A DNA stretch of 64,000 nt from Squalus acanthias (taxonomy: Eukaryota), in contig JASTWF010000334.1 of assembly GCA_030390025.1 (NCBI GenBank), positions 62,001-126,000 of the forward strand. The letters run 5' to 3'. Below are positions 41,045-63,574 of this stretch, piece by piece. The number at the start of each line of letters is the position of its first letter. Position 1 is the stretch's first letter. The position numbers were made by a program, and so were the translations under genes. Under the pieces are notes generated by a model that ran no database searches, was not told where the DNA came from, and was given only the letters and a program-made list of their open reading frames with translations.

Positions 41045-42146
41045 GGGCTCGATTTTGCCAGACCTGAGGAGGCAGGATTGGAGGCGTGTGAGGTGGTAAA
41101 ATCGGAAAAACCGATCCCGCCTCCATCCCGCCTCCGAGCAAATTTCCCAAATGTGTGTTTTTTGACCCCGTTTACATCCCGCCTCCAAGAGGCGGGATAG
41201 GCCCTTAAGGCCCTTAACAACCAGTTAAGTGCCTCTATAATCCCATTTTGAGAGGCCTATCTGATTTTCCCACTTTTCCCACGTCCTGCACGTCTCCTCT
41301 GGAACACGCCAGTGAATCCTGGCGGCCTCACAAGTGGATTGCTTACTAACAGCTGCAGTTCCACCATTAAAAAGGAGTTTTCAGCAATCATCATTTGCAG
41401 GTGGCAGAACTTTGTTGTCTAAGGTCTGGGGGAACTTTTAGCAGGCATACCCATTGTTGTGGAAGTTTGGAGCCTGACACCCATCTCCAGTGTGACCTCC
41501 TGGGAAACCCCTCTCGCCACCTTGACTGAGCGCTTCCTCAACTGAGGCATATACCAGAAGCATGGAAACCATTTATTTCCTTTCCTCCTGGACATCAGAT
41601 TCGGACGAAGACCAACCATGGCAGTAGCTGAACCATGAACAACAGCACCACCAACAGCAGCAGCAACAACAGGAGCGCCAAGCTGCTGCTCACCCACCTG
41701 TAGCTGCACAGGCCAGAGGGCGCCAGCGTGTGACCACACTGCTGCCCGGGATGCAAGGGACGCATTCATCTTGGCCAGATTTGCTTAGCCTGCACAAACA
41801 AACACTTTTGCCTCGCACCTTCTTAGCAGACCATTGACAATGGCCAAGAACCTACGGATTCCTATCACTCTGACCACCATACTGACAATTGTAAGTCGCC
41901 CTAAGCCCTCAATGTGGAAGTCCCATTAGCGAAATGACACACGCCACAACTGCAACAGTTTGCCATCAGAATTTTTTATGACAATAAGCAACTGATGGCT
42001 TTTCAAAATTAAACACAACATTACACTCAAGTGACTACCCTTGTGATTACTTGTGCATTATCTTCCTCTTACGTGTGCTCCTACGTGGTGCTTCCCCTGT
42101 GGCTTCAGCAGATGTGGAGGCCCCTTGCTCACTTTCTTGCTGCTCC

Positions 42147-44145
42147 TGTGGCTAACAAGGGAAATTAGGGATAGCATAAGATCCAAGGAGAGGGCATATA
42201 AATTGGGCAGAAAAAGCGGCAGCCCTGAGGATTGGGAGCAGTTTAGGATTCAACAAAGGAGGACAAAGGGATTAATTAAGAAGGGGAAAATAGAATATGA
42301 AAGTAAGCTTGCTGGGAACATAAACACTGACTGTAAGAGCTTTTATAGATATGTGAAGAGAAAAAGATTAGTGAAATCAAGTGTAGGTCCCTTGCAGTCA
42401 GAAGCAGGGGAAGTTATAATGGGGAACAAAGAAATGGCAGACCAATTAAATGCATATTTTGGTTCTGTCTTCACAAAGGAGGACACAAATAACCTCCCAG
42501 AGATGTTGGAGAACATACGGTCTGATGAAAGGGAGGAACTGAAAGAAATCAGTATTTGCAGGGAAATGGTGTTAGGGAAATTGACGGGATTGAAGGCCGA
42601 TAAATCCCCAGGGCCTGATAATCTACATCCTAGGGTACTTAAGGAAGTGGCCCTAGAAATAGTAGATGCATTGCTGATCATCTTCCAACATTCGATGGAA
42701 TCTGGAACTGTAACCATGGATTGGAGGGTAGCTAATGTTACCCCACTATTCAAAAAGGGTGGTAGAGAGAAAGCGGGGAATTACAGACCGGTAAGCCTGA
42801 CATCGGTATTGGGGAAAATGCTAGAGTCCATTATAAAGGATGTAATAGCTGAGCACTTGAAAAACAGTGACAGGATCGGACAAAGTCAACATGGATTTAC
42901 AAAAGGCAAATCGTGCTTGACTAATCTACTGGAATTTTTTGAGGATGTAACTGGGAAAATAGATAAGGGAGAACCAGTAGATGTGGTGTATTTGGACTTT
43001 CAAAAGGCTTTTGATAAGGTCCCGCATAAGAGATTAGCGTGTAAATTTAAGGCACATGGGATTGGGGGCAAGGTATTGACTTGGATAGAGAACTGGTTGG
43101 TGGACAGAAAGCAGAGAGTAGGAATTAATGGGTCTTTTTCCGAGTGGCAAGCAGTGACTAGTGGGGTACCGCAGGAATCGGTCCTTGGACCCCAGCTATT
43201 CACAATATACATTAATGATCTAGATAAGGGAACTAGATGTAATATCTCCAAGTTTGCAGATGACACAAAGCTGGGTGGGAGTGTGTGCTGCGAGGAGGAT
43301 ACCGAGAAACTCCAGGATGATTTGGACAGGTTGGGTGAGTGGGCAGAAGCGTGGCAGATGCAATATAACGTGGATAAGTGCGAGGTCATCCACTTTGGTG
43401 TCAAAAACAGAAAGGCAGACTATTATCTGAATGGCAATAGATTGGGAGAAGGGGAAGTGCAACGAGACCTGGGTGTCCTTGTGCACCAGTCGCTGAAAAT
43501 AAGCATGCAGGTGCAGCAGGCGGTAAAGAAGGCAAATGGTATGTTGGCCTTCATAGCGAAAGGGTTTGAGTATAGGAACAGGGATGTCCTGCTGCAGTTG
43601 TACAGGGTCTTGGTGAGACCACACCTTGAGTACTGTGTGCAGTTTTGGTCGCCTTATCTGAGGAAGGATGTTCTTGCCATGGAAGGAGTTCAGCGAAGAT
43701 TCACAAAGCTGATACTCGCTGGAGTATAGAAGAATGAGAGGGGATCTCATCGAAACATATAAAATTCTGACAGGTCTGGACAAACTAGGTGCAGGAAGAA
43801 TGTTCCCGATGGTCGGAGAGTCCAGAACCAGGGGTCAGAATCTAAGGATAAGGGGTAAGCCATTTAGGACAGAAATGAGGAAGAATTTCTTCACCCAGAG
43901 AGTGGTGAACCTGTGGAATTCTCTACCACAGAAGGTAGTTGAGGCCAAGTCATTAAATATATTCAAGAATGAGTTAGATATATTTCTTATTTCTTAAAGC
44001 TAAAGGTATCAAGGGATATGGGGAGAAGGCAGGTACAGGGTACTGAGTTTGGATGATCAGCCATGATCTCATCGAATGGCGGAGCAGGCTCGAGGGGCCG
44101 AATGGCCTACTCCTGCTCCTATCTTCTATGTTTCTATGTTTCTAT
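42147..44145 (+). mobile_element. Young CR1 LINE with a long open ORF2 segment
   Basis: 558-aa ORF with full RT motifs, a small internal deletion near 43715, and a (tttctatg)n tail. Confidence 0.95.
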
Positions 44146-45517
44146 GACACCTTTGGCGGGCGTCCTCTGGGGTTGCGAACCTGTGAGGGCTCGGCAACAG
44201 TCTGCTGCTACTGCAGCTGTGCAGGGGTTAAGACGCCGATCTCAGTTGGGTGGGGAACCTGGTGTGGGGCTCTGACCGAGGGCTATGCAGTGGCATGGTC
44301 GTGTGAGCGCTTGGAGAGGAGCCCCCACTTCCTTGTTGTATGCCACCAACATCCCTCTCATGGGTCAGCCCCACTTCAGAGCTAGCAAGGGGCTGGACAG
44401 CACCTTGCTGCACTGCAGGTGGGCCATGAGGACCCGTTTCTGCACTGGAAGTCCTACTCCAGAGGACTTGCATGAAGGTCTGGTTTGTTTGCTCAATAGC
44501 TGACCATCGCTCCTCAAGAGATGTCAGTCTATTCTGAACAATTACCATGTTTTCCATACCCTGGCGACTAAGCTCTTCCATGGACATAGCCATCCTCTCC
44601 TCTACCGTAGCCATTCCCTACTCTACGGTAGCTAGCCTTACCAAGGAGGTTTCCATCCTTTCCGTGGTGATGCGTTCATGCGCCAATGCCTTTACAAAGG
44701 CTTTGCTCATGTTAGCGATGGACTCCTCCATTCGCTCCACACTCGCAGCGACCCTGGAGACAAAACCTGCCAGAGACTCCTGCACCTGTTCCTGGAGTTC
44801 CAGCACCGCTCTCCTTCTGGATGGACCCGGAGGCACAGGGTCGACATGCAGCGGAGCTGAGCTGGGAGTGTCCTCTCCACTGCGATGAGGACTCTCCACT
44901 GCTGTTCCTGTCTCCACCATCTGCTGATGCTCACTTGTGAGCTGTGATACACCAGGTGATAACTCTACTCTATGTCCCGAAGGTCCCACCGAGGTGTGAG
45001 TGTCTGCGCTGGTGCTGGGTGCGCTGAATTCTGCTGACGGAGCGCACTCAGAGGTTGCAGCTTCCTCTGAGGAGTCTTGAAGCTCAGGCTCTTCCTCCTG
45101 GACAGTGGGGATGGGGGCTCTCGATGGTCCTGTGGGGGAGTAAAGGAAAGAGTTAGAGATTTGAGGTAAAGGTTGCATGCACATTGAATTGTGCAGATGA
45201 CCATAAGTCAATCTGTTAGAGCATCAGAATCATTATCAGTCACTCATGCAAAGTCAATGAGAGAGATGCCAAACTATTCTGTCACCAGCTTGCTGTGATG
45301 CGCCCCCGTGTCCATCCCCCACTTGGGAATCCTCCTCGATCCCAGCAATTTCCAGGGCCGCCTCCTCCGAGGTGGTGAGCTGGGCTACTGAGGGTGGCGC
45401 TCCTCCTGTCCTCGCTCTTTCCCTCTTATTGTGGGCTCTCTTTTCCTGTAATGAGGGACACAAGTGGAGTTTGAGTGAGAATGAAAGAGTGAGTGTAGAG
45501 AATCCATAGCATAGATG

Positions 45518-47133
45518 TGTAGAATTCGCAATTATCGCGATTTCATTTTATTAAGGAGAAAACACAAGTTTCATTCAAAACAGCTTTTATTTCAGCGGAA
45601 TGCTGTCAGGTTTAAATTGGACACAAGCAGCCTGTAAAATGGCCGCCGCACCGCGTGACAGAACATTCGAGACTTTTCGGCAGGCAGACAAGATGGCGTT
45701 CCAATAAACATTTTTTTTTTGCAGGATCGATAACGATTCAGCACAGTGAAGACAATACACAGGACATTATGGGTTTACAGTATAAACATCGATACTGGGA
45801 TCGGTCTCCCAGGTACAAAGGAAAGCCATCAAGGGCCCATCCAAAGGACATTAATATGTAAACTCCCAACGGCTCTACGATGAGAGAGCCGTTAGCAGGT
45901 AGTTATACAGGACATTTGGAAGCCCCAAACCCCTCCAGGGGGAACACCGACCGATTTAACAATGGGAGAAGTATTAGCAGGTACTCAAACATTCAGGAGT
46001 AGCCCCGAAACCCATTAAAGACAGAGATCACCCATACAGGACTTTTTGGGCGCCAAACCTTAAACAAAAGAATGGACATTATAGTTGGGCGGGAAACGGA
46101 AGAACTGTGCACTATAATTGCAGGCCCAAACCGTCCATTCGCTCTCTTGCTCTTTTGCTCTTGACTCTTGCCGCTTGCTGCTGTTATCATCGTGGCTGCT
46201 CCTGTGTTTTATCCGGTCGATTCGTAACCTCGTGGCTGCTCCTGGGTAAAAGACTGTTGCAAAGACCTATGTTGGTAGCTGGCAGCGGAACCGAAGGCCC
46301 GGGATGAGATGAGATGAGATGAGAGGAGAAGAGAAGAAGACCTTATCCATCGCCACGGTCAGTAAATCCCGACCGCGCCTGTAGGTCGATCAGCCAAGTC
46401 TTCTTGACAACGAAGTTTTCTTCTTTAACAAGACATATTGCATCGACGATAACTGGACTGTGCAAACACATCGTATCAATGATATTGACAACGGTGCTCC
46501 ACCATACCCTGTATCCAACCAACAGAGGTCTTCACTACAGCGGACGGTCCAGCCGACTGACCGAGCAGCAGAAGCAGTAAACAAGTGGGACCAGGAGATC
46601 TCCTGACCAACACGTGGGTGCTGAGGTGGAAAACATCCGATCAGCTATTCGGGATTTCTCCGAGTTATTACGAGTGGTGAGCATGAGTCTCGGGATCCTA
46701 CGAAGCTAGTTTTAGGATAGTTATTGATAGGGGAGGGTTTAAAGTAAGGATATTTGTAATGTGTGCCCTATTTACGTTGTGCTGGTCGTTCCTCGTTTCC
46801 CTAAGAGTGATTATAACTGTTTGTAAGATTGTACTGTCATTCATCTGTGCATATGACATGTATTTCATAATTTTAAGTATCATGCAATAAAGATTTTCCA
46901 TTTCGTACCGTTCAAACCAAGTCTACATGAGTTTTATCTCCATTGCTGCTCTCGCATCTAAGTCCAGTGTCTAGAACCGTAAGGGAGAGTGATTCGAACC
47001 ACTCACAGGGGTGTCTAGTGTTCCCAGACTGGCTGGAGACCAGGCCTAGACCCGCACTGACATACAGGCTGCACAGAGCCGCGTGAACCTCACAGGTTAC
47101 GAGACACGCAGGGTCAGGAGAGTATCCCTTACA
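45518..47133 (+). repeat. 5' LTR (1616 bp)
   Basis: Repeated at a constant offset of 10993. GC box 46087, CGGAAG 46097, TATAAT 46113, AATAAA 46886, YY1-like AAAATGGCCGCC at about 45636. Confidence 0.97.
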
Positions 47134-47137
47134 GAAA

Positions 47138-48949
47138 ATGGCGACCGCGGCAGGACATTGGCAGCGAGAGGGTGGTGTGTTGGATTTTGGAATGACTGTA
47201 CGAAATGTGATGCAGGAAAAGATAGCGGATTACGTGTTTGGAAAGGTTAATCTAACGAAAAAGTGGATAAGCGAACTGTTAGCGGATAAGAGTCCACTAG
47301 AGGCAGCTGAAAGATGGACGGATAGTAAGGAGCATAAAAAGGCAGTTGAGAAAGCAGTCTGGCTTATGTGCTACAAAAGGCAGGTCCAGATTTCTAACCA
47401 GACCAATACAGCGCTAACCGCTCGAATCAAGCAGTTAGAGGAGGAAATGGAGGAGAAGGTTTCTGGAGGGGAGGTGCTCATTAAGAGTTTAAATGAGTTA
47501 CGCCAGGAAAGCCAGGAAGTCTCCAGCTACCTTAAAACAAGGGTAGAGTATCTCGAGTGCCAGATCACTGAAGCAAAATTAAACGAGAATAGGATGAAGG
47601 AAAGATGTAACCGTCAAGCTGCCCAGATAAGAACTCAAGAAGAGAGCTTAATGGGGGTTAGGTCGGCGTATAAGTTGGCCCTTGAGGATAAGTTTCAGGG
47701 AGCCGACCATAGCGCCTGCGAAAAAGAGATAGAGAGCCTCAAAAGGGCCGTGAATAATGCGAACGGCATGGTGTGCCTTATTAATCCGTCGGCACGCCAG
47801 CCGCTAGTAAATGAGAGATTTAGAAATTCCCCACCAAGTAAAGCAGAAGAAGTAGTAGCCACTGCGCCCTCCGCGCCACCCAGCTATTCAGAAACCTGGG
47901 TTAGGGAGGAAGCAACGGAAGAAACAAAAGAGCCCGTTGAAAAGGAAGTAGAAAAGGGATCGTTGTATCCAGTAACGGGGATTAAAAGGGGCCCAAGCAG
48001 AAACGGTGGGGAAGAACCGGGGGATCTCCTCGGACAGCTGGTGTTGCCTCACAGTTCACATCAGCTGAGGGCTATGATAAACCACGTAAGGAAGCTGACC
48101 GAGATAGACGACCCTTCCGTACATTTTAGGGAAGTTGAGCAAGCCGCAGCCATCAACGGCTGCGATGATGGGGAGACAGCAAAAATGCTGCTGTTCTCTT
48201 TAGATAGCTCGGTCCTTCAGTGTCTCTCAGGCGATAGCAAGAGGGGTAATAAAAGTTATGAGGAATTGAAAAATGAGGTCCTAGAAGTAGTGGGAGCGAA
48301 CGACGGAGGTCCGTTTGCTAGAGTGGGACAGACAGTGCAGATGGAGGGAGAACCCCCGAAGGTCTTTGCCGACAGGCTGTGGCCAGTATATGAGCGCAGC
48401 TGTCTAGGTGCGCCCGAGCGCGAAGATGTGGAAGGCGCCGCTTTAATTCATTGGCTTAGGTGCATAATAGCCAACAGTTTACCAGCCGTTAGAGAGCAGG
48501 CAAAAGCCTGGTTCGATCCCAATGACCTCAACCTTACGGAAGAGTCGGTCTTGAATCGACTCACGTTAGGTTACCGTAACATAAGGGGTATGGCAACACG
48601 TCCCTTTAAGGGAAGAGTACATGAGGTACGACCCGCAGCCCCGGCTCAAAGAGAGTGGCATCAGGAGGGTAATCGCGCCCCACAGGCAAGTAATGCCTGT
48701 TACGGGTGTGGGAAGACAGGGCACTGGCGCAAGCACTGCAGGAACCCTTGGAAGGATTCCAAGGATAAGAATCCCGCGGTCCGAGCCCAGGCGCCTGTCC
48801 CGGCTAAGGAAGCAAAGGTACCCACCTCTCCCGAAGACCTCGAAGCAGTGTTAGGAGTCATGCGCAAGATGGTTTTAAATGCGCGTGGACAGGTGGCGGT
48901 CGCAACCGGCCCCGTAGGTGCCGCAGGACCGTCTAATAGTGCCCCATGA
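47138..48949 (+). CDS. gag: Gag (603 aa): coiled coil, PSAPPSY late domain, capsid-like region, one CCHC knuckle
   Basis: CYGCGKTGHWRKHC at 48698-48739; PSAPPSY at 47867-47887; position directly after the LTR/PBS. Confidence 0.92.
   Translation: MATAAGHWQREGGVLDFGMTVRNVMQEKIADYVFGKVNLTKKWISELLADKSPLEAAERWTDSKEHKKAVEKAVWLMCYKRQVQISNQTNTALTARIKQLEEEMEEKVSGGEVLIKSLNELRQESQEVSSYLKTRVEYLECQITEAKLNENRMKERCNRQAAQIRTQEESLMGVRSAYKLALEDKFQGADHSACEKEIESLKRAVNNANGMVCLINPSARQPLVNERFRNSPPSKAEEVVATAPSAPPSYSETWVREEATEETKEPVEKEVEKGSLYPVTGIKRGPSRNGGEEPGDLLGQLVLPHSSHQLRAMINHVRKLTEIDDPSVHFREVEQAAAINGCDDGETAKMLLFSLDSSVLQCLSGDSKRGNKSYEELKNEVLEVVGANDGGPFARVGQTVQMEGEPPKVFADRLWPVYERSCLGAPEREDVEGAALIHWLRCIIANSLPAVREQAKAWFDPNDLNLTEESVLNRLTLGYRNIRGMATRPFKGRVHEVRPAAPAQREWHQEGNRAPQASNACYGCGKTGHWRKHCRNPWKDSKDKNPAVRAQAPVPAKEAKVPTSPEDLEAVLGVMRKMVLNARGQVAVATGPVGAAGPSNSAP
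47139..47156 (+). promoter_or_regulatory. Primer-binding site, tRNA-Arg(UCG)-like
   Basis: TGGCGACCGCGGCAGGAC is complementary to the 3' end of vertebrate tRNA-Arg(UCG) (...GTCCTGCCGCGGTCG-CCA, recalled from memory). Confidence 0.85.
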
Positions 48950-51900
48950 CTAGAACCAGCACAGCCCGTCTACCTGTGTCCGCTCAGCTATGATGCGTGG
49001 AGGCGACCTGTGGTGGAGATGGAGGTAGAGAAACAAAAGGGCAGTTATCTGTTGGACACGGGAGCTTCTTGCACCATAATCCATACAGATGACCCTTTTG
49101 ACTCGCCGCTATCTACCAAGGTCCCATTCACGCTAGCAGGGTTCACAGGGAAAGAACAGGCTGGCACGTTTTCCCTCCCGCTATCCATTCGTTTAGGAAC
49201 ACTTCGCTTTAAGTGGAAGTGTATACTGATGGCATGGCAAAAGGGGGGTGGAAGAGGTATTCTCGGGTCCGATCTGTTAGCGGGACACGGGATCCTCGTG
49301 GACCTCAGAAATCACTGTCTCTGGGGGGCTAAAGGGGAAAAAGGCGAAGTAATGGTGATTCAAGGGGAGGAAGAAACAGGGGTCCTGTGTACCGTACAGC
49401 CATCCGGAGGCTACGACCTCAGGCTTATGGTCGCAGATGTCCCAACGGACATGCAAACGTACGTGACAGATAATATGCACGCGTTTGCAACCCACAAGCA
49501 CGATTGTGGGAGGGTGGTCGGGTTTGAGGTCAGCGTAGATGGGGACCCCATGACCCGACCCCAAAAGCAGTATAACTTCCCCAAAGAAGCAGAACCCGAT
49601 ATGGAGGCAGCAATGTCTTCCTTGGTGCAGCAGGGCGTGTTGAGGCCGATAGCCACACACGTGAACTCCCCATTATGGCCGGTTAGGAAGCCGGATAATT
49701 CGTGGAGAGCCACGGTGGACTACAGAGTCCTTAACAGTAACATCCCCGCCTGCGCGCCCACAGTAGCAGCAGTTGCTGACCTAATAGGGAGCATCCCAGC
49801 GTCCGCGACCACGTTCACGGTGCTGGATATCTCGAACGGTTTTTGGTCCATCCCGCTGCGGCGAGAGGACCAGTACAAGTTTGCCTTTACGTTTAAAGGG
49901 CAACAGTACACGTGGAACTGCTTGCCACAAGGTTTCCACAATAGCCCCAGTATTTTTCACCAGTGTATGGCAGGGAGTTTAAAGGAGTTTAGTCAGCCCA
50001 ATCAGATAGTACAGTATGTGGATGATTTGCTCCTATTTACGGACTCAAGGGAGGAGCACGGACCACTGCTGGACGAGTTATTGGAGCTGTTAGCGAGAAA
50101 GGGTTTTAAAGTAAACCCAAAGAAAGCACGTATCGGTCAGCAGGAAGTAAAATTCCTGGGACTGACCCTACGCGCTGGGGAAAGAGCCATAGACAAAGCA
50201 AGGAGGGAGTCGGTGCAAGAATTACCGATTCCCAACAACGTAAGGGGTGTGAGGTCCTTCTTGGGACTGACCGGTTACTGCAGGGATTTTATCGAGGATT
50301 ATGCGGCCACAGCGGCGCCGCTCCTCCGACTCCTCCATAAGGGAGTAGAGTGGCTTTGGGACGAGGGCTGCCAAGCAGCCTTCGAGAAGTTAAAAAGGGA
50401 TCTGCAGACCGCGCCAGCCTTAGGGGCCATAGATGGGGGGAAGGAGTTTTTCCTGGAGGTAGCTGCCAGCGGAGACAGTTTAAGTGCCGTGCTGCTCCAA
50501 GAGCGTCACGGCAAGCTGAGGCCGGTTGTCTATTCATCCAGGGTATTAACGGATGTGGAGAGGAGTTTTTCCAATTGCGAAAGGCACCTTTTAGCCACGC
50601 ATTGGGCTGTGAAAAGATCAGCGATCTTCACAGGGCTCTCTCCCATCACTCTCCTCACACATCACACACCAACTAAGATGCTTCTGGATGGGAGGATTAA
50701 AGACGGGACCGTAAGCAGCGCACGCATTGCGCGTTGGACCCTTCTTCTCTCCCAGTTGGACATCAGAGTAAAAGGTCTTTGCGAGCCCAGGCTTGCGGCC
50801 AATTTGGTATACCCCGGTACAGCCCACCGGTGTTCGGTGGAGGGGGTGTGGGACGTCAACATAGGTTTACGGGCCGGGATACATCCCAATGGGCGCGAGA
50901 TTTATGTTGATGGGTCTAGCACAGTATCTGCTGGCGAGCGACTCACAGGGTGTGGAGTTTATGACCCTGCGGCAGACCTTGCCCTGGCGATCAAGCTCCC
51001 TAGCACCATGAGCGCGCAGCAGGCTGAGCTGTCTGCCGTGGTGTACGTGGTAACCCACCCAGACATTTTCCCAACCCCATACACGATTTGCTCGGACAGT
51101 ATGTTCACCTGCAATTCGTGTACGGAATACCTGGCCATCTGGTCCCGCCGTGGATACACCTCCGCGGACGGGCGACCTTTAACGGTAAAGCCCTTGCTGG
51201 AAAAGATCTTAGCAGCAGCAGTAGGGGAGGAAGGGGAGATTTTCATCCATAAGGTGAAAGCTCACTCCTCCACAGAGCCCCGTGGGGAGGGCAACCGGCA
51301 GGCGGATGCGCTAGCCAGGGAGGGTGCCCGCGACGGTACTTTCTGGAACCCCTATAGAACCGGACCCATAGCAGCGGTCCGAGGTGGGGACGGGAATACC
51401 GGGAACACCAGGGTAGCATTGCCCCTAGACCTTAAGACCGTCCAAGCCCAGGATCCCGCCCTAAAAGCAGTCCTAAAAACGATTGCTGAGGGGAGGCAGG
51501 TAGAAGGTCCGTACAGTACGGCAACCCTCTCAGTTAAGGAAGGCATGCTGTTCCGCGAGGAGCAGTGGGTTGTGCCGCAGCAGCACAGGAGGGAATTCCT
51601 CCAGTTGGCTCACGAGGGACCAGGGGCAGGGCACCCCGGGCCCGAGGTTACCTGGCAACGGGTAGAGCAAGCGGGATGGTGGCCAGGGCTCAGGGAACAA
51701 GTCCGCGAGTTCTGTGCAAACTGTCTTGTGTGCGCTGCAAACAACCCAGACCCCCAGAAAAGGAAGGTGCCCATGGGACACGTAAGAAGGGTAGAGGGAC
51801 CATGGCAGTCGATACAGATCGACTATATAGGACCCCTGCCCACCACCCAGGGAGGTTATAAGTACTGCCTCGTCCTGGTGGATGTGTTTTCCAAGTGGGT

Positions 51901-53452
51901 GGAAGCCTTCCCTTGTCGAACAGCTACGGCACTGGGTACAGCAAAAATCTTGGTCCGGGAAGTGTTCTCGCGGTGGGGACTCCCCCGTTTCGTGGAGTCA
52001 GACCAAGGGAGTCATTTCACCGGCCAGGTGATGCAGAACACCCTCATGCTTTTGGGCATTGAAGGGAAGTGGCACGTAGCACACAATCCCCAGTCATCCG
52101 GGATTGTTGAACGTATGAACCGGACCCTGAAGGAGAAATTGAGGAAAGAGACTAGGAACTCGCCCCAAAAATGGGCGGAAGTTCTGCCTTTAGTCCTCAT
52201 GGGGGTCCGGGCCAGTCAGTCAAAAAGTACGGGGTACTCCCCGCACGAGGTAATGACCGGCAGGCTCATGCGAACCCCCACCCATGTGCTAGCCCCGGTG
52301 CTCACTGAGGGTCAGCTTCAAGAGATCAGCAGGGACAAGTTCGCCCAAACTCTCTTGGAGCGCCTGAAGCAAGTTTATGAGCAGGCGGCTGGGAACATGG
52401 GAAGGCAGCACCAGGGCAATCGCTTGTTGCTGGAACCCCGCAAAACGCGGGAGTGGGAAGTAGGAGACCAGGTCATGGTCAGAAACTACGCCAGAGTAGG
52501 GAGTCTGGAACCACTGTATATGGGACCCTACAACATTGTAGACAAGGCAAGTCCCATGGTTTACGCCGTAAAAGTACCTCGGCGCACTAAGTGGTTCCAC
52601 ATAAACCAATGTAAACTGTACCAGCCGGGTGCGCAAGGGAAAACTACAGGGGTAAATCCCGCCAACGGGAAAACACAGCCCCAGGTAGGACCACAAGGCA
52701 CACAGGCAGGCGTAGCAGCTTGCATCAGGGGAAGGGACATCCCGGACGATCATGCAGCGTTTTTCTGGAGTTGGGGGTTAGATGACGAGGACCCCAGGGT
52801 ACCCTGGTCAGATGAGGATAGTGCAGATGAGCATAGTGATGATGACGGGTGGTTTCACAGGAACGGTCTGGAAGGATTGGGGCCGCTAGGTAGAGATCCA
52901 TACGGGGTGGACACACAAGCTGCAGGTCCCGACAGCAGGAGGAAGGAGCTAGAGGAGGCCGGGCCAGCCGCTATGTGGTTCCCAGAGGTGTGGCCGCCCG
53001 CTGTAAACGTCCAGTCCTCAGGGGAGGCAGAGTTCGCGAGTGAAGGGCCGCCTGCTGGGCCGAGCAGGGCGGGGCCCCGAACTGCCAGCCCCGAGGTTAG
53101 GGAGGCGGAGTCAGCGGAGGCGGGGCTGGCGCCTGTGATGGAACCCCAGGTCATCCCGTTGAAGGTCTCGGGACCCGGTCCGTCCGTCACGGAGCCCCCG
53201 CCCATAGCAGTTCCCCGTAGGTCAAGCAGAGCACCCCAGCCCAGGAAGACGTGGTCAGGTCCACAGGATGCCCCAGGGCGTAAGTTTCAGATTAAGATAA
53301 CCCGGGTAGAGACAGGCCACATCGAAGCAGTAACAGGCTGCGGCAGATCAGAGGAAAGGGTCAGCGCAGCAACAGGCTGCGGCAGATCAGAAGGAAGGGT
53401 CAGTGCCCTCCCACCGTCGGGAAGAGCTCGCAGCAGCCTTCTCAGGATTTAA
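48950..53452 (+). CDS. pol: Pol (PR-RT-tether-RNase H-IN plus long C-terminal tail), in frame with gag
   Basis: LLDTGA protease; LPQGFHNSP and YVDD RT; degenerate RH then IYVDGS/AELSA/SDS/ADALA RH; HHCC, DDE and GPY integrase. Confidence 0.96.
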   Translation, partial: LEPAQPVYLCPLSYDAWRRPVVEMEVEKQKGSYLLDTGASCTIIHTDDPFDSPLSTKVPFTLAGFTGKEQAGTFSLPLSIRLGTLRFKWKCILMAWQKGGGRGILGSDLLAGHGILVDLRNHCLWGAKGEKGEVMVIQGEEETGVLCTVQPSGGYDLRLMVADVPTDMQTYVTDNMHAFATHKHDCGRVVGFEVSVDGDPMTRPQKQYNFPKEAEPDMEAAMSSLVQQGVLRPIATHVNSPLWPVRKPDNSWRATVDYRVLNSNIPACAPTVAAVADLIGSIPASATTFTVLDISNGFWSIPLRREDQYKFAFTFKGQQYTWNCLPQGFHNSPSIFHQCMAGSLKEFSQPNQIVQYVDDLLLFTDSREEHGPLLDELLELLARKGFKVNPKKARIGQQEVKFLGLTLRAGERAIDKARRESVQELPIPNNVRGVRSFLGLTGYCRDFIEDYAATAAPLLRLLHKGVEWLWDEGCQAAFEKLKRDLQTAPALGAIDGGKEFFLEVAASGDSLSAVLLQERHGKLRPVVYSSRVLTDVERSFSNCERHLLATHWAVKRSAIFTGLSPITLLTHHTPTKMLLDGRIKDGTVSSARIARWTLLLSQLDIRVKGLCEPRLAANLVYPGTAHRCSVEGVWDVNIGLRAGIHPNGREIYVDGSSTVSAGERLTGCGVYDPAADLALAIKLPSTMSAQQAELSAVVYVVTHPDIFPTPYTICSDSMFTCNSCTEYLAIWSRRGYTSADGRPLTVKPLLEKILAAAVGEEGEIFIHKVKAHSSTEPRGEGNRQADALAREGARDGTFWNPYRTGPIAAVRGGDGNTGNTRVALPLDLKTVQAQDPALKAVLKTIAEGRQVEGPYSTATLSVKEGMLFREEQWVVPQQHRREFLQLAHEGPGAGHPGPEVTWQRVEQAGWWPGLREQVREFCANCLVCAANNPDPQKRKVPMGHVRRVEGPWQSIQIDYIGPLPTTQGGYKYCLVLVDVFSKWVEAFPCRTATALGTAKILVREVFSRWGLPRFVESDQGSHFTGQVMQNTLMLLGIEGKWHVAHNPQSSGIVERMNRTLKEKLRKETRNSPQKWAEVLPLVLMGVRASQSKSTGYSPHEVMTGRLMRTPTHVLAPVLTEGQLQEISRDKFAQTLLERLKQVYEQAAGNMGRQHQGNRLLLEPRKTREWEVGDQVMVRNYARVGSLEPLYMGPYNIVDKASPMVYAVKVPRRTKWFHINQCKLYQPGAQGKTTGVNPANGKTQPQVGPQGTQAGVAACIRGRDIPDDHAAFFWSWGLDDEDPRVPWSDEDSADEHSDDDGWFHRNGLEGLGPLGRDPYGVDTQAAGPDSRRKELEEAGPAAMWFPEVWPPAVNVQSSGEAEFASEGPPAGPSRAGPRTASPEVREAESAEAGLAPVMEPQVIPLKVSGPGPSVTEPPPIAVPRRSSRAPQPRKTWSGPQDAPGRKFQIKITRVETGHIEAVTGCGRSEERVSAATGCGRSEGRVSALPPSGRARSSLLRI

Positions 53453-53735
53453 AGGGGCCGCCCTGAGAACGGGCGGCATTGTAAAGTTATTAGTTTAAGG
53501 TTTTAAGTTTTAGTTTAAAGTTTTAAGTAGTTTTAATAAGTTTAAGTTTGTAGTGGTTTTAACAGATAACGACAAATGATGGGAGTTTTAAGGCTAGGTT
53601 TAGAGGAAGTCTGTTCAGCAAACGTTGAAGTTTACGTGAGGCGAGGTCAGGGGACCCGCTCACCCTTCACAAAAGCCAGAGACTTTTTGCGAGGCTGGCT
53701 ACCTCATTCTATCTGATCACAGGAACCAAGGAAGG

Positions 53736-56087
53736 ATGGAACGACTCATAGTATTGCTCGTGGCAATCGGATGTGGATTGGCCTATCGGGGCCTCACCAA
53801 GGATGTCGTGGTGTTTGGATGTTCCGGGGACACGGCCCCCATCGCGGTGGATGGGACCGGGAGACGGAAGGCAGAAGGGACCAGCACCTATTTCCACAAG
53901 GGAAGGTGGCCAGGATGGCTGGGAACGAACTCAACGGAGTATTCCAGCACATCGGGGTTCGCCTACAAAGAGACTTCTTTAATGTGCCCCAAAGTACGGA
54001 TCATCGCACCCAGGATCAGCGTCACCGTCGGCAAACGGATTTGTTTGACTTGCAGTGGGAATGTCCCATTGAGCCGATGGTGGTGGCTGCGAAAGCTGAG
54101 CAAAACTATGAGGAACTCTTCGGTTGAGTGGGAGCGACTGGGTAATAATACCCATCGGACAATTACGGGGACTGATGGACAAGTGAAAGTCTGTTGGGAC
54201 AAATGGTGGGAACCAGATGAGGGGATTTATGTTTGTATGTGGGGGTCAAAGTACGTTTGCCCCAAAGGCATCTCCATATTCTTTATTAACCAGTGGCAGG
54301 ATAACGGACAGGGGATGAGGTGGGATGCGAGCACCAGGGGGTGCGGAGCCCCATTCTCCCCGATCCCAGTAAATGCCACTGAGCTCATTACGCGCCCACG
54401 CAAAGCCCCGCCCACGATTCCGGTAGTTCTAACTGAGGAAGAAGGGTGCCCTAAAACTAGTAAGGGACCCGGGAACGGTTTGGTACTGGTCCCCACAGAC
54501 CAGATACTATTTCAGGGGGTGCATTACGCGGTGGCCTCGGTGATTTTAAATCTCACTGAGGTACGGTTACCAGAGTGGTGCCCCAAAAAGACGGAACAGT
54601 TGTACCAGGTCCTGTTGACCAAGATGTTCAGGCAGTTTTACGAGTTCGATTTCGCGGAAATTGATAAGACAAGTTTATACACCGCACCGCAGGAAGTTTT
54701 GGACCAAGTTGGGAGGCAAAGAAGGGGTTTGGTGAACGATGCGTTCACTGCTTTTAACACAGGGACATCTGTGGTCAACGCTCTAGACAGTGTGGAGCTG
54801 CAGACCCAGATTAATGGTTTAAAAACACAGTTAAAGGATATTCTCACAGATGAGAATAAAGTGGTAGGGTCGGGTCTGCACGAGGACCAAGCCATGACAC
54901 TACACTTAAAAGAGATTATAGCAGAGCTGGAGAAACATGCGCGTACGGTAAATGCCCTGATTAGGGAAGATCGGAATGCATCCGATCAAGCTGCGCAGAA
55001 CGAGGTGTGCGTGCTTTACGGGGCGTGGTTACTGGGCGAGGGCCGCAGTAATTTGGAGGATTTAAAACAAGGTTTGGTCCCGTCCTGGATAAGTAACAAA
55101 CACCTGCGGGCGCTCCACCCTTTTCAGAATGCATTAAGTCCGTGCCAGCTCAGGCTAGCTTCAGAAGCTTACCCAGTCCCCGTGGACTGCGGACGTTCAA
55201 ACCATACTATTATGGGAATAGTATTACGCATGCCGGTTTTGGGCAACACAGCAAAGCCCGCCCCGGTGTATCGGGTAGAGAACATTGGTGTCATTCAGGG
55301 GGGAGCCCACATTCGTTATGCAGCGGTTCCACCTTACGTCATCCGCTGGGAGCAAACGATGACAGGTACAGATCTCTCTGGTTGTCGTGGCAGGGGAGCA
55401 CACATAATACTGTGCCCCCAGCACTTGAATGCCTTTTTAACACCACAGTGCGGGTTCAGAACGGCTGGCGCCAAGTCCATGAATTGCACCATGGAGGCAA
55501 TGGCACAAGATCATGTGCCTCCGCAGGTAGCATACATCGGGGGTGGAACATATTGTGTTACCACTGCAGCGCAACACTACCAGCATGGAAACCGTAGCCG
55601 GTGTCCGGTGAGTGACAGCAGTTTCTGTTTTAAACCCAGGGCTGAAGTTCAAGTAGCACAACAGCGAATTATCCCAATCCCTGAACCATCCACTGTTCAT
55701 CTCACAGTAAAAGAGAATTTTACCGACTTGCAGCGATTTGTCGCACATTTTGGGTACCTCATTCCCCCTCTCCCTGAGCATTTAACCAAACTTCTGAAGG
55801 CCGTCGCGGTGTCACAAAAGCATTTCTATACTTTAGAACAGAAAACCGTCGAGATAGGTACAGACATTTTGGACATAGTGGTTCCACCGTGGTGGAATCT
55901 GTTCACGAATATTGAAGTGCCCTCATGGGTCAGAATAGCCTCCCACATTTTAGTCGTATGTCAAGTGTTTATTGTAGTATACCTTTTGTTTATACATTGT
56001 AAAAGAGACAAGCGCCTCACCAAGCATGAGAACACGGGAGAGTGGCGAGAACGTTACGTGCGCGTGCACGATGAGAGCGCAGTGTAA
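53736..56087 (+). CDS. env: Env-like glycoprotein (783 aa): signal peptide, Ig-like domain, RQRR furin site, fusion peptide/heptad, Cys-rich region, TM anchor
   Basis: Hydrophobic N-terminus; acceptor ...atcacAG at 53721-53722; RQRR|GLVNDAF at 54714-54725; several N-X-S/T sequons; TM IASHILVVCQVFIVVYLLFI. Confidence 0.92.
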   Translation: MERLIVLLVAIGCGLAYRGLTKDVVVFGCSGDTAPIAVDGTGRRKAEGTSTYFHKGRWPGWLGTNSTEYSSTSGFAYKETSLMCPKVRIIAPRISVTVGKRICLTCSGNVPLSRWWWLRKLSKTMRNSSVEWERLGNNTHRTITGTDGQVKVCWDKWWEPDEGIYVCMWGSKYVCPKGISIFFINQWQDNGQGMRWDASTRGCGAPFSPIPVNATELITRPRKAPPTIPVVLTEEEGCPKTSKGPGNGLVLVPTDQILFQGVHYAVASVILNLTEVRLPEWCPKKTEQLYQVLLTKMFRQFYEFDFAEIDKTSLYTAPQEVLDQVGRQRRGLVNDAFTAFNTGTSVVNALDSVELQTQINGLKTQLKDILTDENKVVGSGLHEDQAMTLHLKEIIAELEKHARTVNALIREDRNASDQAAQNEVCVLYGAWLLGEGRSNLEDLKQGLVPSWISNKHLRALHPFQNALSPCQLRLASEAYPVPVDCGRSNHTIMGIVLRMPVLGNTAKPAPVYRVENIGVIQGGAHIRYAAVPPYVIRWEQTMTGTDLSGCRGRGAHIILCPQHLNAFLTPQCGFRTAGAKSMNCTMEAMAQDHVPPQVAYIGGGTYCVTTAAQHYQHGNRSRCPVSDSSFCFKPRAEVQVAQQRIIPIPEPSTVHLTVKENFTDLQRFVAHFGYLIPPLPEHLTKLLKAVAVSQKHFYTLEQKTVEIGTDILDIVVPPWWNLFTNIEVPSWVRIASHILVVCQVFIVVYLLFIHCKRDKRLTKHENTGEWRERYVRVHDESAV

Positions 56088-56498
56088 TGAGAAGATGGCG
56101 TCACTCCCGCTCGCCACGTGCGCCGCGGAAGTTTGTACTCAGTGTAAATACGTTGGAAACTCGACATGTTTAAGAGTCGGGATTTGTTTATTTCGGTGAT
56201 GGTGTTGATTGTTTGGTTTTTTGGGTTTTGTTTTTCCTTTCCCTGAATAAAAGATAAATATACAGGTGATGCGTGAGGTATCGGCCTGGTTACGCCGGGA
56301 AGGAAAACAAGTGGTGTAAGTTTAAGGGCAAATGATGCCTATGGTGATATAAAGTGTGATTTTCTTGGGAAATAAGGACGACACAGAGACCCTAGTGAAG
56401 TTAAAATTTTATGGGATTAATTTACTGGATTCGGAGTGAAATCGAGATAAGATTGCTCACCACTGAGTTTTGATACGATAAGCGGAGTTATTCGCATC

Positions 56499-56510
56499 AA
56501 CAGGAGGGAC
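56499..56510 (+). promoter_or_regulatory. Polypurine tract
   Basis: aacaggagggac immediately before the 3' LTR. Confidence 0.7.
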
Positions 56511-58126
56511 TGTAGAATTCGCAATTATCGCGATTTCATTTTATTAAGGAGAAAACACAAGTTTCATTCAAAACAGCTTTTATTTCAGCGGAATGCTGTC
56601 AGGTTTAAATTGGACACAAGCAGCCTGTAAAATGGCCGCCGCACCGCGTGACAGAACATTCGAGACTTTTCGGCAGGCAGACAAGATGGCGTTCCAATAA
56701 ACATTTTTTTTTTGCAGGATCGATAACGATTCAGCACAGTGAAGACAATACACAGGACATTATGGGTTTACAGTATAAACATCGATACTGGGATCGGTCT
56801 CCCAGGTACAAAGGAAAGCCATCAAGGGCCCATCCAAAGGACATTAATATGTAAACTCCCAACGGCTCTACGATGAGAGAGCCGTTAGCAGGTAGTTATA
56901 CAGGACATTTGGAAGCCCCAAACCCCTCCAGGGGGAACACCGACCGATTTAACAATGGGAGAAGTATTAGCAGGTACTCAAACATTCAGGAGTAGCCCCG
57001 AAACCCATTAAAGACAGAGATCACCCATACAGGACTTTTTGGGCGCCAAACCTTAAACAAAAGAATGGACATTATAGTTGGGCGGGAAACGGAAGAACTG
57101 TGCACTATAATTGCAGGCCCAAACCGTCCATTCGCTCTCTTGCTCTTTTGCTCTTGACTCTTGCCGCTTGCTGCTGTTATCATCGTGGCTGCTCCTGTGT
57201 TTTATCCGGTCGATTCGTAACCTCGTGGCTGCTCCTGGGTAAAAGACTGTTGCAAAGACCTATGTTGGTAGCTGGCAGCGGAACCGAAGGCCCGGGATGA
57301 GATGAGATGAGATGAGAGGAGAAGAGAAGAAGACCTTATCCATCGCCACGGTCAGTAAATCCCGACCGCGCCTGTAGGTCGATCAGCCAAGTCTTCTTGA
57401 CAACGAAGTTTTCTTCTTTAACAAGACATATTGCATCGACGATAACTGGACTGTGCAAACACATCGTATCAATGATATTGACAACGGTGCTCCACCATAC
57501 CCTGTATCCAACCAACAGAGGTCTTCACTACAGCGGACGGTCCAGCCGACTGACCGAGCAGCAGAAGCAGTAAACAAGTGGGACCAGGAGATCTCCTGAC
57601 CAACACGTGGGTGCTGAGGTGGAAAACATCCGATCAGCTATTCGGGATTTCTCCGAGTTATTACGAGTGGTGAGCATGAGTCTCGGGATCCTACGAAGCT
57701 AGTTTTAGGATAGTTATTGATAGGGGAGGGTTTAAAGTAAGGATATTTGTAATGTGTGCCCTATTTACGTTGTGCTGGTCGTTCCTCGTTTCCCTAAGAG
57801 TGATTATAACTGTTTGTAAGATTGTACTGTCATTCATCTGTGCATATGACATGTATTTCATAATTTTAAGTATCATGCAATAAAGATTTTCCATTTCGTA
57901 CCGTTCAAACCAAGTCTACATGAGTTTTATCTCCATTGCTGCTCTCGCATCTAAGTCCAGTGTCTAGAACCGTAAGGGAGAGTGATTCGAACCACTCACA
58001 GGGGTGTCTAGTGTTCCCAGACTGGCTGGAGACCAGGCCTAGACCCGCACTGACATACAGGCTGCACAGAGCCGCGTGAACCTCACAGGTTACGAGACAC
58101 GCAGGGTCAGGAGAGTATCCCTTACA
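56511..58126 (+). repeat. 3' LTR (1616 bp)
   Basis: All five small ORF translations and the T10 run match the 5' LTR. Confidence 0.97.
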
Positions 58127-58950
58127 GATGTTTAGAAGGAGACAAAGGGCCCTCCCTGTGTGTTGTAAGTTGTTGTCATTGTGTCACAGTGATAGGGAGT
58201 GTGAGGGCTGTATGGTCGAATAGTTAAGTGAATGTGACCATAGAGAGAGAGGGAATGGGTAAGGGTGCAGGGATGTCAGTGTCAAGTGGGATGTGGAGGA
58301 AGAGGTTGGCAAAGCTGAGTGCTGGTGAAGAGAGGCGCTGGGGATCAGATTGAGGGTGATGGGAAAGTCATACTCACTTTTCCTGCGCAGAGAAGTTCAT
58401 GAAACCTCTTCCTGCACTGCAGCCAGGTTCTGCGGCTCATTGATATGGAGTTGACCTCCTGGGCCACTTGCAGCCACACAGCTTTAGTCTGTTGTGGTGG
58501 CTTTTTTCTCCCTGAGGAAGGGAAGAGCACCTCGTTATTAGATCTTGCTCCCTGCACCAGAGCTTGGAGGGAGGGCTCATCAAAGCGAGGTGCACACTTT
58601 TGCTTGCTGGTGGACATGGTCGGTAAATGAAGTCCTTCATACAATGTCCAAAGCGTTTCCAGTCTCCAGAAGAATCAAGGCTGCTTGCAGGCCTTAAATC
58701 CAACAGCATTGATGAGGTCATCGGAAGCGACTTTCAGGATGGAAAGACTCATTGGGCTAGTGGTTCCCACACGCAGGAAATCAATTTCCCAATTAGGGGA
58801 AAATCCCACTTTTCCAACACATCACTTAGGAGTCGGGGTCCTGACACGATTTCCACCTGACACGCCCCAGCCCGCCCACACTGACAAAATCCAGCCCTAT
58901 GATTCTATATTGTCATCGTTTGACAGCTCTGTGAAGCTGTCAAACACTGA

Positions 58951-60855: not shown

Positions 60856-63574
60856 GGCCGCGATTTTCACAGCCCCGAGGAGGGGGGTTTGGAGGCGGGA
60901 CTGTTGGGAAAATCGCAAAAAGTGAGCCCGGGTTCGGAACCCGCCTCCAACCTGCCTCTGCGCAATTATGCCGGAAGCGGGTTTGACGGGTGCAATTCGG
61001 TCCCGCCTCCATCAGTCAAGAGAGGTAGTTAAGACCCTTAAATAGTCGTTAAGGACCTCTATAATCCTATTTCGACAGGCCTTTGTTATTTTGCCACATT
61101 TTGCACGTGTTGTACGACCCTCCTAAACCACACCAGTTGATCCTGGCGGGTTGACAAGTGGATGGCCTCCTCACAGCTGCAGCTCCACCATTAAAACGGA
61201 GCTTTCATCAGGGAGCAGTTGCAGGTGGCAGAACTTTTGTTCCACAGGTCTTTCAGCACTTTTAGCAGGCCTACCGAAGTCGGAGATGCTGCAGCTTCTA
61301 TCTCTCAACTGTGTGACCTCCTTGGAAAACCCTCTCCCCGCTTGGAGTGAGCGCTTCCCCAACGAAGGTATCTGCCAGCAGCATGGGAACCATTTATTTC
61401 CTTTCATCATGGACCTCAGATTCGGATGAGGAGCAGCCACGGCAGCAGGAGCGCCAACCTCCTGCTCACCCACCTGATGCTGCACAGGGCAGAAGGTGCC
61501 AGCACATGGCAGCACGTCGCCGCAGGAGATACCCCCTCTCAGGGTTTACAGACAGAGGATGAGCTACCTCAACATGAGTGAGCAGCAGTACCAAAGGAGG
61601 CTGAGGGTTTCACGAGAGGTTGTCGGAGACACCTGCGCACTGCTGCAACCAAACCTGGAGCCCAGAGGAACGGCTGGACACCCCTTACCAGTGGCTGTCA
61701 AAGTCACCACCGCACTCAACCTTTTTGCCTCAGGCTCCTTCCAGGGATCATCAGCAGACATCAGCGGCATCTCCCAGTCGGCCGCCCACAGTTGCATCAC
61801 GCAGGTTATCGATGCCCTTTTCGCAAAGGCGTACATTTACATGCACTTCTCAAGGGATCAAGCAAGTAGAACCGCGTGTTCAGTTGGCTTTGCAAATATG
61901 GCAGGCTTGCCAATGGTGCAGGGTGTCATAGACTGCACACATGTGGCCCTTAGGGTACCACATCACAACCCAGCTATCTTTCTCAACCACAAGGGCTTCC
62001 ACTCCCTCAACGTACAGCTGGTGTGTAACCACAAGAAGGAGATTTTGCATTTTTGCGCCAAGTTCTGTGGTAGTTGCCATGACTCGTTCATCCTGCGGAG
62101 CTCCAGTGTTCCTATGCTCTTCAATCCGCCAAACCAACTTAATGGATGGCTTCTTGGTGACTGAAGAAGTGGCTAATGACGGCGATCAAGAGGCCAGCTA
62201 ACGAGGCTGAGGTGCGCTACAACGACAGCCACATATCGACCAGGTCCATCATCGAGCAGACCATTGGTTTGCTGAAGATGCGATTCTGATGCCTTGACAG
62301 AGCAGGTGGAGCCCTGCAGTATTCAGCAGCCCGGGTCTCCAGAATGGTCGTGGTCTGCTGTGCACTGCACAACATGGCACAGCATCGTGGCTTACAGCTT
62401 CCTGATGAGCAAATGGTTTAGTTCATAGCCTCCTCAGATGAGGATGAGGATGAGGAGGAGGAGGATGAGGATGACCGAGTGGCGGCGTATCTACCAGGAG
62501 CAGTGGCAGCGCGCGAGCACATGGCTGCCCGTGATGCAAGGGAAGCACTCATCCTGGCCTGATTTGCATAGGTTGCCCATTGTGGCACATGTGACTGGCT
62601 CCTTCTTAACACATGATAGACAATGGACATGACTTTCTGGCCTCCTTTCACTCTGACCACTAACCTGACCATGCAAGTGTCGCGGAGCCCGCAATGTGGA
62701 GCTGCCTAAGCCGAAATAACAGATGTCATCACGCCAACAGTTTGCCATCACCTCATTTTAATACATTCACACAGGGATGGCATTTCATCAATAAACAGAA
62801 ACAATCACCAAAGAGCCTACCCCTGTGACTAATAGTGCTTTATTTTTCTCTTACGCGTGCTCCTACATGGTGCTCCCCCTGTGGCTTCAGCAGATGTGGA
62901 GGCACCTTGCTCACTTTCATGCTGCTCCTGCTTCGACACCTTTGGCGGGCGTCCTCTAGGTTTCCGAGCCTGTGAGGACTCACCAAATGTCTGCTCATCC
63001 TGCGGCAGTGCAGGGGCTGAGATGCCCATCTCAGTTGGGTGCGGACTCTGGTGGGGCTTTGACCGAGGGCTACGCAGTGGCATGGAAGTGTGAGTGCTTG
63101 GAGAGGAGCCCCCACTTCCTTGTTCTCTGCCAAGGGTTATATCCCTTGCCAGCTGGACCCACACAGCCTTGGTTTCTTTGGGAGGCCTCTTCCTCCGAGA
63201 AGAAGGGAAAAGCACCTCCCTGCTAGCTCTCGCCCCCTCAACCAGGATACCCAGCGCCTCATCCAAGAACCTCGGGAGGCCCTTGCCTTGGAGCTGGTCA
63301 TTCTACAATGAGATAAAAGTTTGGAGGTGGTGCAGCATCGACCAAAAACCAGTGGAATGAGCCAAGGCAGCAAGCAGCCCTTAAATGAAGCTGGATAAGT
63401 GACATCAGCAGAGGCGAGTTTCAGTCCCAAAAGACTAATTGGCCCAGGGGAACCCACACCTCTGAAATCAACTGGCCAATTAGGGGAAAATCACAAATTT
63501 TTCCCACCTCTCAGTGGAGGCGGGTTTGGAACCCGCCCAAACCGAAACCCGCCTCCAATGTGAAAATCGCCCCC
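60856..63574. mobile_element. Harbinger C: transposase pseudogene (+, about 61400-62560) and deleted Myb/SANT gene (-, 62829-63300)
   Basis: TIRs ggccgcgattttcaca / tgtgaaaatcgccccc with TTT flanks. HARBI1-like motifs GVIDCTHV, NHKGFHSLNVQLVC, HDSFIL and WLLGD. Confidence 0.88.

Follow-up and report, generated by a model that had tools for sequence, protein, structure and literature searches.

Paramyxoviruses and pneumoviruses bind their receptors by means of a second protein, beside the fusion protein F. Retroviral counterparts of F have been reported: the envelope protein (Env) of the amphibian lokiretroviruses is described, in the available portion of that report, as similar to the paramyxovirus and pneumovirus F proteins of the Pfam family PF00523 (PMC7947760). 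F-type scaffolds that bear binding modules of their own are likewise known, the module being inserted in foamy-virus Env and N-terminal in the coronavirus spike, according to the part of the source that was available (PMC11468914). Here we describe an env gene that invites comparison with all of these, encoded by a complete endogenous retrovirus (ERV) of the cartilaginous fish Squalus acanthias in a stretch of 64,000 nucleotides (assembly GCA_030390025.1, contig JASTWF010000334.1, positions 62,001 to 126,000 of the forward strand); this whole stretch is called the window below, and coordinates are counted from its first letter. We consider it moderately likely that this Env, taken as a whole, consists of an immunoglobulin (Ig)-like module acting as a receptor-binding head on the F-like fusion core of a young ERV.

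That Env residues 85-185 form an Ig-like domain with the Ig fold is very likely on the evidence of sequence profiles. An earlier reading of the same DNA, made from the letters alone (hereafter the sequence-only reading), had pointed to a set of Ig-type motifs in this segment, and every one of them is present: WWWLRK occupies aa 115-120 (the Trp triplet being 115-117), DEGIYVC occupies aa 161-167, C106 and C167 are spaced by 61 residues, and a further pair, C103 and C153, belongs to the N-terminal cysteines of Env, which lie at positions 84, 103, 106, 153, 167, 175 and 203. The segment displays the residue pattern of the Ig superfamily (IgSF), with the B-strand Cys, the C-strand Trp and the D-x-G-x-Y-x-C of the F strand at the expected spacings. 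A second disulfide, linking C103 and C153 between the neighboring B and E strands, is plausible. By profile score the domain appears nearer to the I-set/Ig_3 type, though its C-to-D spacing is V-like.

Several kinds of profile comparison bear on this assignment. Isolated aa 84-190 are matched by the Pfam Ig_3 model with E 0.014 (16.3 bits against a cutoff of 30), and a single-sequence search of the PDB returned JAM and two antibody light-chain variable (VL) chains as the three best of its five matches, all over aa 80-175 and with C106 and C167 opposite the canonical cysteines. An alignment of the N-terminal modules of the family (11 rows, hereafter A3) gave a sharper picture: all 31 PDB chains that its profile retrieved at E<=10 are IgSF members, the best being contactin-3 (E 0.0024). 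Scanned singly against Pfam, five of the 11 modules gave an Ig_3 match at E<=1, at best 0.0085, and V-set (0.0031), I-set (0.049) and Ig_2 (0.049) were each hit by one member.

We also compared A3 by hhalign with reference sets drawn from exons of the same genome, comprising 30 Ig_3, 30 V-set and 30 fn3 sequences. It scored 31.1 against the host Ig_3 set (P 1.3e-4), 25.2 against the V-set (P 3.1e-3) and 11.9 against fn3 (P 0.33); the positive control, host Ig against host V-set, scored 64.0 (P 2.7e-11), and host Ig against host fn3 scored 14.0 (P 0.063). None of 60 column shuffles of A3 reached 31.1 against the Ig_3 set, the highest being 14.7; with the profile reversed, the score was 13.2. 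The close clade alone, with seven sequences, still attained 25.7 (P 1.1e-3), a score reached by none of 150 column shuffles (maximum 21.3), and its alignment with the host Ig profile runs in register over 74 columns that span strands A' to F, matching V-x-x-G-x-x-v-x-L-x-C, the Trp and D-x-G-x-Y-x-C. In this register C106 is the B-strand Cys, W116 the C-strand Trp and C167 the F-strand Cys. A hidden Markov model (HMM) of the host Ig set recognizes the module of the window itself (P0001 among our handles for family members) with P 8e-4, one in 100 shuffles being as good, and recognizes single relatives more strongly (P0010, 1.3e-4; P0013, 6e-5; P0035, 2.7e-7); the fn3 HMM yields no signal with single N-terminal modules. 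At the profile level, the likeness is to bona fide Ig domains and is specific with respect to fn3.

Behind this module Env has the layout of an F-type class I fusion protein: a signal peptide, a short F2-like part and a basic site ahead of a hydrophobic fusion peptide are followed by a heptad region, a large Cys-rich F1-like part (its Cys-rich region being C425-C631), a second helical region and an anchor. Once the module is subtracted, about 93 aa precede the cleavage site and 453 aa follow it; about 93 aa and about 450 aa are the proportions of paramyxovirus F0. The motif C-P-x-G-L...Y-x-x-V, which begins at C238, is common to the family members. The nearest neighbors of aa 236-783 in a protein language-model search were Gypsy/Baculo_F (0.95) and Fusion_gly PF00523 (0.93). 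From the layout, these neighbors and the lokiretrovirus literature we infer a core that may be F-like in its fold. Hence the F-like fusogen of the sequence-only reading holds up in its layout and its language-model neighbors and has no Pfam match to PF00523. Two other class assignments were considered and rejected. A gamma-type Env is ruled out, there being no CWLC, no CX6CC and no two adjacent cysteines anywhere in Env; membership in the foamy viruses is ruled out by gag and pol sharing one frame across a TGA, by the short signal peptide and by the lack of any match to the Pfam model of foamy Env.

The N-terminal module behaves as a unit apart from the core. A scan of 1.84 billion representative proteins (E<=0.001) recovered 49 relatives of Env, of which eight cover the N-terminal module. 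All eight carry the same ERV-type N-terminus, some of them inside chimeric gene models, one example being a zinc-finger fusion. Further searches for homologs of the module gave two and four matches and added only P0066 and P0067. Relatives with a species name belong to cartilaginous fishes, namely Rhinoraja longicauda, Pristiophorus japonicus, Chiloscyllium punctatum, Mustelus asterias and Rhincodon typus, and to the frogs Pelodytes ibericus and Mantella aurantiaca. The same module recurs at 44-71% identity in ERVs from other skate and shark species, and the more distant full-length relatives match Env only from about aa 221-237 onward, their N-termini being different. In public gene models of other species (P0003, P0004 and P0016), pieces of env genes from this family are joined to genes of the host (Niban-like, C2H2 zinc-finger and repeat-protein genes); most likely such fusions are annotation chimeras rather than co-opted genes.

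The differing N-termini fall into several kinds. The shark protein P0013 (Chiloscyllium), which bears the UniRef name 'Ig-like domain-containing protein', has an Ig-like module with P 6e-5 by the Ig HMM and 2e-5 by the V HMM. P0035 and P0066, which stem from sequencing-run assemblies, have an Ig-like module without both canonical cysteines together (hhalign P 4.7e-6, probability 86%). The modules of the frog proteins P0019, P0047 and P0067 are weakly Ig-like (P about 0.006); those of the shark proteins P0012, P0023 and P0031 are Cys-rich and give no Ig signal; and P0037 and P0048 have no module at all, their signal peptide leading directly into the C-P motif. Because the heads of the relatives differ or are absent, the head of Env is best seen as a variable and dispensable add-on to a conserved core. 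As judged from these profiles, Ig-like heads recur within the family. The survey of related env genes that the sequence-only reading had envisaged has thus turned up Ig-like, Cys-rich and headless N-termini side by side.

The element itself is very young and abundant, with env mostly kept open, as is apparent from its identical long terminal repeats (LTRs) and from its env copies; these suggest a burst that is very recent or still under way. In a six-frame search of the 3.7 Gb host assembly with Env aa 1-235, 150 of 6078 first-look candidates were scored, and all 150 were 99-100% identical to the query and free of stops, so that the genome holds at least 150 near-identical env N-termini. A hand count put the open frame at 815 aa (the full stop-to-stop length found here) or more in 127 of these 150 copies and at 300-801 aa in the remaining 23.

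We accordingly favor a scheme in which each of these parts would have a role in entry. The core at aa 85-185 would adopt an I-set/V-like Ig fold, with a C106-C167 disulfide, W116 in the hydrophobic core and probably a C103-C153 bond, and the Pro-rich glycosylated linker would connect this module with a class I fusion protein whose layout resembles that of paramyxovirus F. The linker is as the sequence-only reading had described it, with eight prolines in the 36 residues of aa 205-240. Furin would cut at RQRR330 and leave the Ig-like module attached to the F2-like subunit; the module would act as the receptor-binding head, and its engagement would release the metastable fusion core. It would then stand in for a separate attachment protein, which the virus does not encode: apart from gag, pol and env, the only plus-strand open reading frame (ORF) of at least 100 aa in the provirus is a 109-aa frame in each LTR (45978-46307 and 56971-57300), and therefore a second glycoprotein gene is missing, just as had been claimed. 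Receptor binding by the module is inferred from its mature N-terminal position, the flexible linker, the glycans, the contrast of a variable head with a conserved core and the single glycoprotein gene.

An Ig-like domain of this kind could nevertheless have a role other than binding a receptor. It might be a glycan-bearing cap or clamp on the prefusion core, or an immune-modulating mimic of IgSF proteins, with attachment and triggering residing in the F-like core or depending on low pH. The headless P0037 and P0048 suggest that the core may be self-sufficient, the module carries four N-glycosylation sequons (N65, N127, N137 and N213), and acidic endosomes are the site of fusion for foamy-virus Env as given in the available part of PMC11468914. 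The same portion of that source describes the documented tip modules of class I proteins, be they N-terminal or inserted, as receptor binders, and the wide divergence of the module across lineages beside a conserved core fits a surface in contact with the host. We regard such a cap or mimic as unlikely, although it is the foremost competitor of a receptor-binding head.

Several results weigh against the proposed receptor-binding Ig head on an F-like core, and they are best considered together. No Pfam Ig model reaches its gathering score with Env or with the members of the family alignment (best 16-17 bits against 30), and single A3 members also hit unrelated families, one member each (fn1, 0.021; DUF3809, 0.061; ORF68_C, 0.08). 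The hhalign probability reaches only 53% with the 11-sequence profile and falls to 20% when the close clade is used by itself, and the language-model search with aa 17-237 peaked at 0.78-0.80, a level often reached by shuffled proteins. AlphaFold2 modeled aa 1-275 from the single sequence with a mean predicted local distance difference test (pLDDT) value of 31.4 and aa 17-240 from the 11-row alignment with 35.9; in a Foldseek search of the PDB, the alignment-based model found no match at E<=0.001, its top rows being a mixture of unrelated folds. As for the core, the Pfam models PF00523 and PF12259 are absent from Env (E<=1) and from nine relatives (E<=0.5), and a search of the PDB with a 26-sequence family profile retrieved no F protein; that profile gave an insignificant match (E 0.15) to the membrane-proximal region of the coronavirus spike.

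Some of these same results bear on whether the module is an Ig domain in the first place. A viral glycoprotein might have a β domain, rich in Cys and Trp, that bears Ig-like motifs by chance: all Ig matches fall under the curated thresholds, the confidence of both structure models is low, Foldseek is without an Ig match, and a relaxed form of the motif (C-x8-14-W-x35-60-[DE]-x-[GA]-x-[YFVI]-x-C) occurs by itself in 156 of 20000 shuffled full-length Env sequences (0.8%). Against such a coincidence, profile tests that are independent of one another and controlled by shuffling, reversal and fn3 converge on Ig in a single register, and the divergent relatives give a stronger Ig signal than Env does, as seen in the P0035 group (P 4.7e-6) and in the UniRef name of P0013. 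The structure models, with pLDDT values this low, are unusable and hence are no evidence against an Ig fold; the strands of the single-sequence model (102-107, 115-121, 130-134, 141-146, 149-154 and 166-168) sit where B, C, C', D, E and F would be expected, which is only a hint. A non-Ig module with fortuitous motifs is, in our estimate, marginally less probable even than the cap or mimic. The Ig fold claimed by the sequence-only reading has the backing of profile tests, shuffles and PDB matches, and it lacks a Pfam score above threshold and a confident sandwich from AlphaFold2 and Foldseek; the fold of aa 85-185, and with it the three-dimensional β-sandwich, is a prediction carried by statistical support from profiles.

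A recent capture of the domain from an adhesion or immune gene of this fish, the origin that the sequence-only reading had in mind, would fit the extreme N-terminal position behind a linker, as in a cassette-like gain, and the greater closeness of each lineage's module to host Ig profiles than to the modules of other lineages (by hhalign and HMM), but it is very unlikely, since shark and frog relatives also carry Ig-like N-terminal modules, the module is already present in the skate and shark ERVs mentioned above, its likeness to Ig exons of the same genome is at the level of the fold only (best P 0.002), and no host protein, and so no donor gene, matched it at E<=0.001 among the 1.84 billion representatives.

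A receptor-binding Ig-like head on an F-like core leads to a wider conjecture, which we hold to be doubtful. It is conceivable that a retrovirus lineage of cartilaginous fishes and amphibians, recently or still active, possesses an F-type fusion machine with exchangeable N-terminal heads (at least four unrelated-looking IgSF heads, a Cys-rich one and headless forms), the heads having been taken repeatedly from IgSF adhesion or immune genes of the hosts. If so, each captured domain would redirect the virus to its own partner. Comparisons of the modules between lineages by hmmsearch and hhalign gave no significant similarity (best P 0.035), a result with which single and repeated acquisition appear equally compatible. 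Irrespective of their origin, the headless, Ig-headed and Cys-rich-headed versions constitute a natural series that could show how class I fusogens gain receptor-binding modules. Moreover, the element is among the youngest high-copy ERVs with an intact env, which opens an entry route and its receptor in a cartilaginous fish to experiment.

Features of the provirus and of its env gene (positions in the window)
Feature	Position	Strand	Remarks
Complete provirus, 12.6 kb	45518-58128	+	target-site duplication GATG on both flanks
5' LTR, 1618 bp, TG...CA	45518..47135	+	exact identity block with 3' LTR
Candidate splice donor (G/GTGAGC) in 5' LTR	46676..46677	+	one contig of run X3
gag	47192..48949	+	first in-frame ATG 47192; TGA 48947-48949; weak zf-CCHC match only
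pol (protease, reverse transcriptase, tether RNase H-like domain, RNase H, integrase, low-complexity tail)	48950..53452	+	
Candidate splice acceptor (..tgatcacag/G)	53722..53723	+	13 nt before env ATG
env ORF, 783 aa + stop	53736..56087	+	
Signal peptide, aa 1-16 (MERLIVLLVAIGCGLA)	53736..53783	+	hydrophobic N-terminus; predicted cleavage point
N-terminal module, aa 17-237	53784..54446	+	distant relatives align only from about aa 221-237; missing in P0037 and P0048
Ig-like core, aa 85-185 (probable)	53988..54290	+	B-strand C106, C-strand W116, F-strand D161-x-G-x-Y-x-C167
Pro-rich linker, aa 205-236	54348..54443	+	N-glycosylation sequon N213
F2-like segment, aa 238-330	54447..54725	+	from conserved C-P...G-L...Y-x-x-V motif to furin-type site
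Furin-type cleavage site R327-Q-R-R330	54714-54725	+	closes F2-like segment
F1-like ectodomain, aa 331-733	54726..55934	+	fusion peptide GLVNDAFTAFNTGTSVVNAL, helical heptad region, Cys-rich head, membrane-proximal helical region
Transmembrane anchor, about aa 734-756	55935..56003	+	19-mers of top hydrophobicity begin at aa 732-738; followed by 27-aa tail
3' LTR, 1618 bp	56511..58128	+	100% identical to 5' LTR

Between the LTRs of the provirus lie gag, pol and env, of which pol shows Pfam matches to RVT_1 (9.8e-36), RT_RNaseH_2, RNase_H, Integrase_H2C2, rve and RVP. A candidate primer-binding site, TGGCGACCGCGGCAGGAC, lies at 47138-47157 and starts 5 nt after the 5' LTR. The stop codon of gag is in frame with pol; this arrangement suggests that Gag-Pol is made by stop-codon read-through, like that of gamma- and epsilon-type retroviruses and unlike that of foamy viruses. 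The pol frame runs on for about 270 aa past the SH3-like domain of the integrase (52400-53452, pol aa about 1230-1500), and this C-terminal tail is acidic, rich in Pro, Gly and Ser and without a family match. Outside the provirus, direct repeats of 75-83% identity (families D2, D3, D7 and D8) flank it at 41177-44267 and 61001-63056 with a spacing of about 19.8-20.8 kb; the integration may have occurred within an older repeat or a duplicated stretch.

The env region (53600-56100) is also represented in public sequencing runs, 14 of which hold 50-73% of its sampled 31-letter words. These runs fall under seven organism codes and eight studies; none is recorded as RNA, and the RNA type given to eight of them is a guess. 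The near-identical env copies under several organism labels could reflect close relatives or spread between species. Among the contigs of four runs that were examined, one contig, from run X3, connects 46675 with 53722, the ends being GT..AG; this joint resembles a spliced env messenger and would put the start of Env at M1, which we take as a weak hint, the joint being a single contig with a 25-letter side from a run whose RNA type is guessed, and contig depth cannot rank the genes.

As for known systems, lokiretrovirus Env, in the available portion of its description, shares with this Env a signal peptide, an RX[KR]R site, a fusion peptide, a coiled coil and a membrane anchor, and lokiretroviruses share the pol order of protease, reverse transcriptase, tether, RNase H and integrase and have amphibian hosts, like two of the relatives found here (PMC7947760). 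A likeness to PF00523 is reported there, whereas our Env has no PF00523 match; the two were compared by layout. The available text of that paper makes no mention of immunoglobulin, shark, Chondrichthyes, skate or cartilaginous, and no paper in the literature searched pairs 'lokiretrovirus' with 'immunoglobulin'. With foamy-virus Env, as far as its source was available, our Env shares the lack of a separate attachment protein and would share a receptor-binding domain of its own, the foamy scaffold being of the F-type with domains I, II and III; the foamy binding domain, however, is inserted in the surface subunit (SU), has its own fold and goes with a long leader peptide (PMC11468914), whereas here an Ig-looking module is N-terminal, the signal peptide is short and gag and pol form one frame across a TGA. 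The coronavirus spike similarly has, in the same part of that source, receptor-binding modules N-terminal to a class I fusion core (PMC11468914), but it is a far larger protein from a different realm of viruses, and its domains fold otherwise.

The paramyxovirus and pneumovirus F proteins share the F2- and F1-like sizes, the cleavage beside the fusion peptide and the two helical repeats; in contrast to their two-protein system, there is here one glycoprotein gene with an added head. The I-set/Ig_3 adhesion domains of hosts, such as those of contactin-3 and JAM, match the module in register from A' to F, including the B Cys, the C Trp and D-x-G-x-Y-x-C, but this likeness is one of fold (16 bits to Pfam Ig_3), and the module has extra cysteines and a Trp triplet; its flanks, aa 17-84 and 186-237, resemble nothing known. 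In murine leukemia virus, the receptor-binding domain of SU is a β-sandwich whose topology is Ig-like and whose sequence lacks the motifs of the IgSF, so that the statement that canonical SU proteins carry no IgSF domain stands for sequence only. A review of the subject (PMC9967133) is silent on Ig folds in SU, and the literature searched contains no report of an IgSF head on a retroviral Env or an F-type core. If the fold and the function hold, this would be the first retroviral Env with an IgSF head on an F-type core that is recognizable by sequence. A binding module appended to a class I fusion scaffold is already known as a kind, and the Ig-like head is probably the new part.

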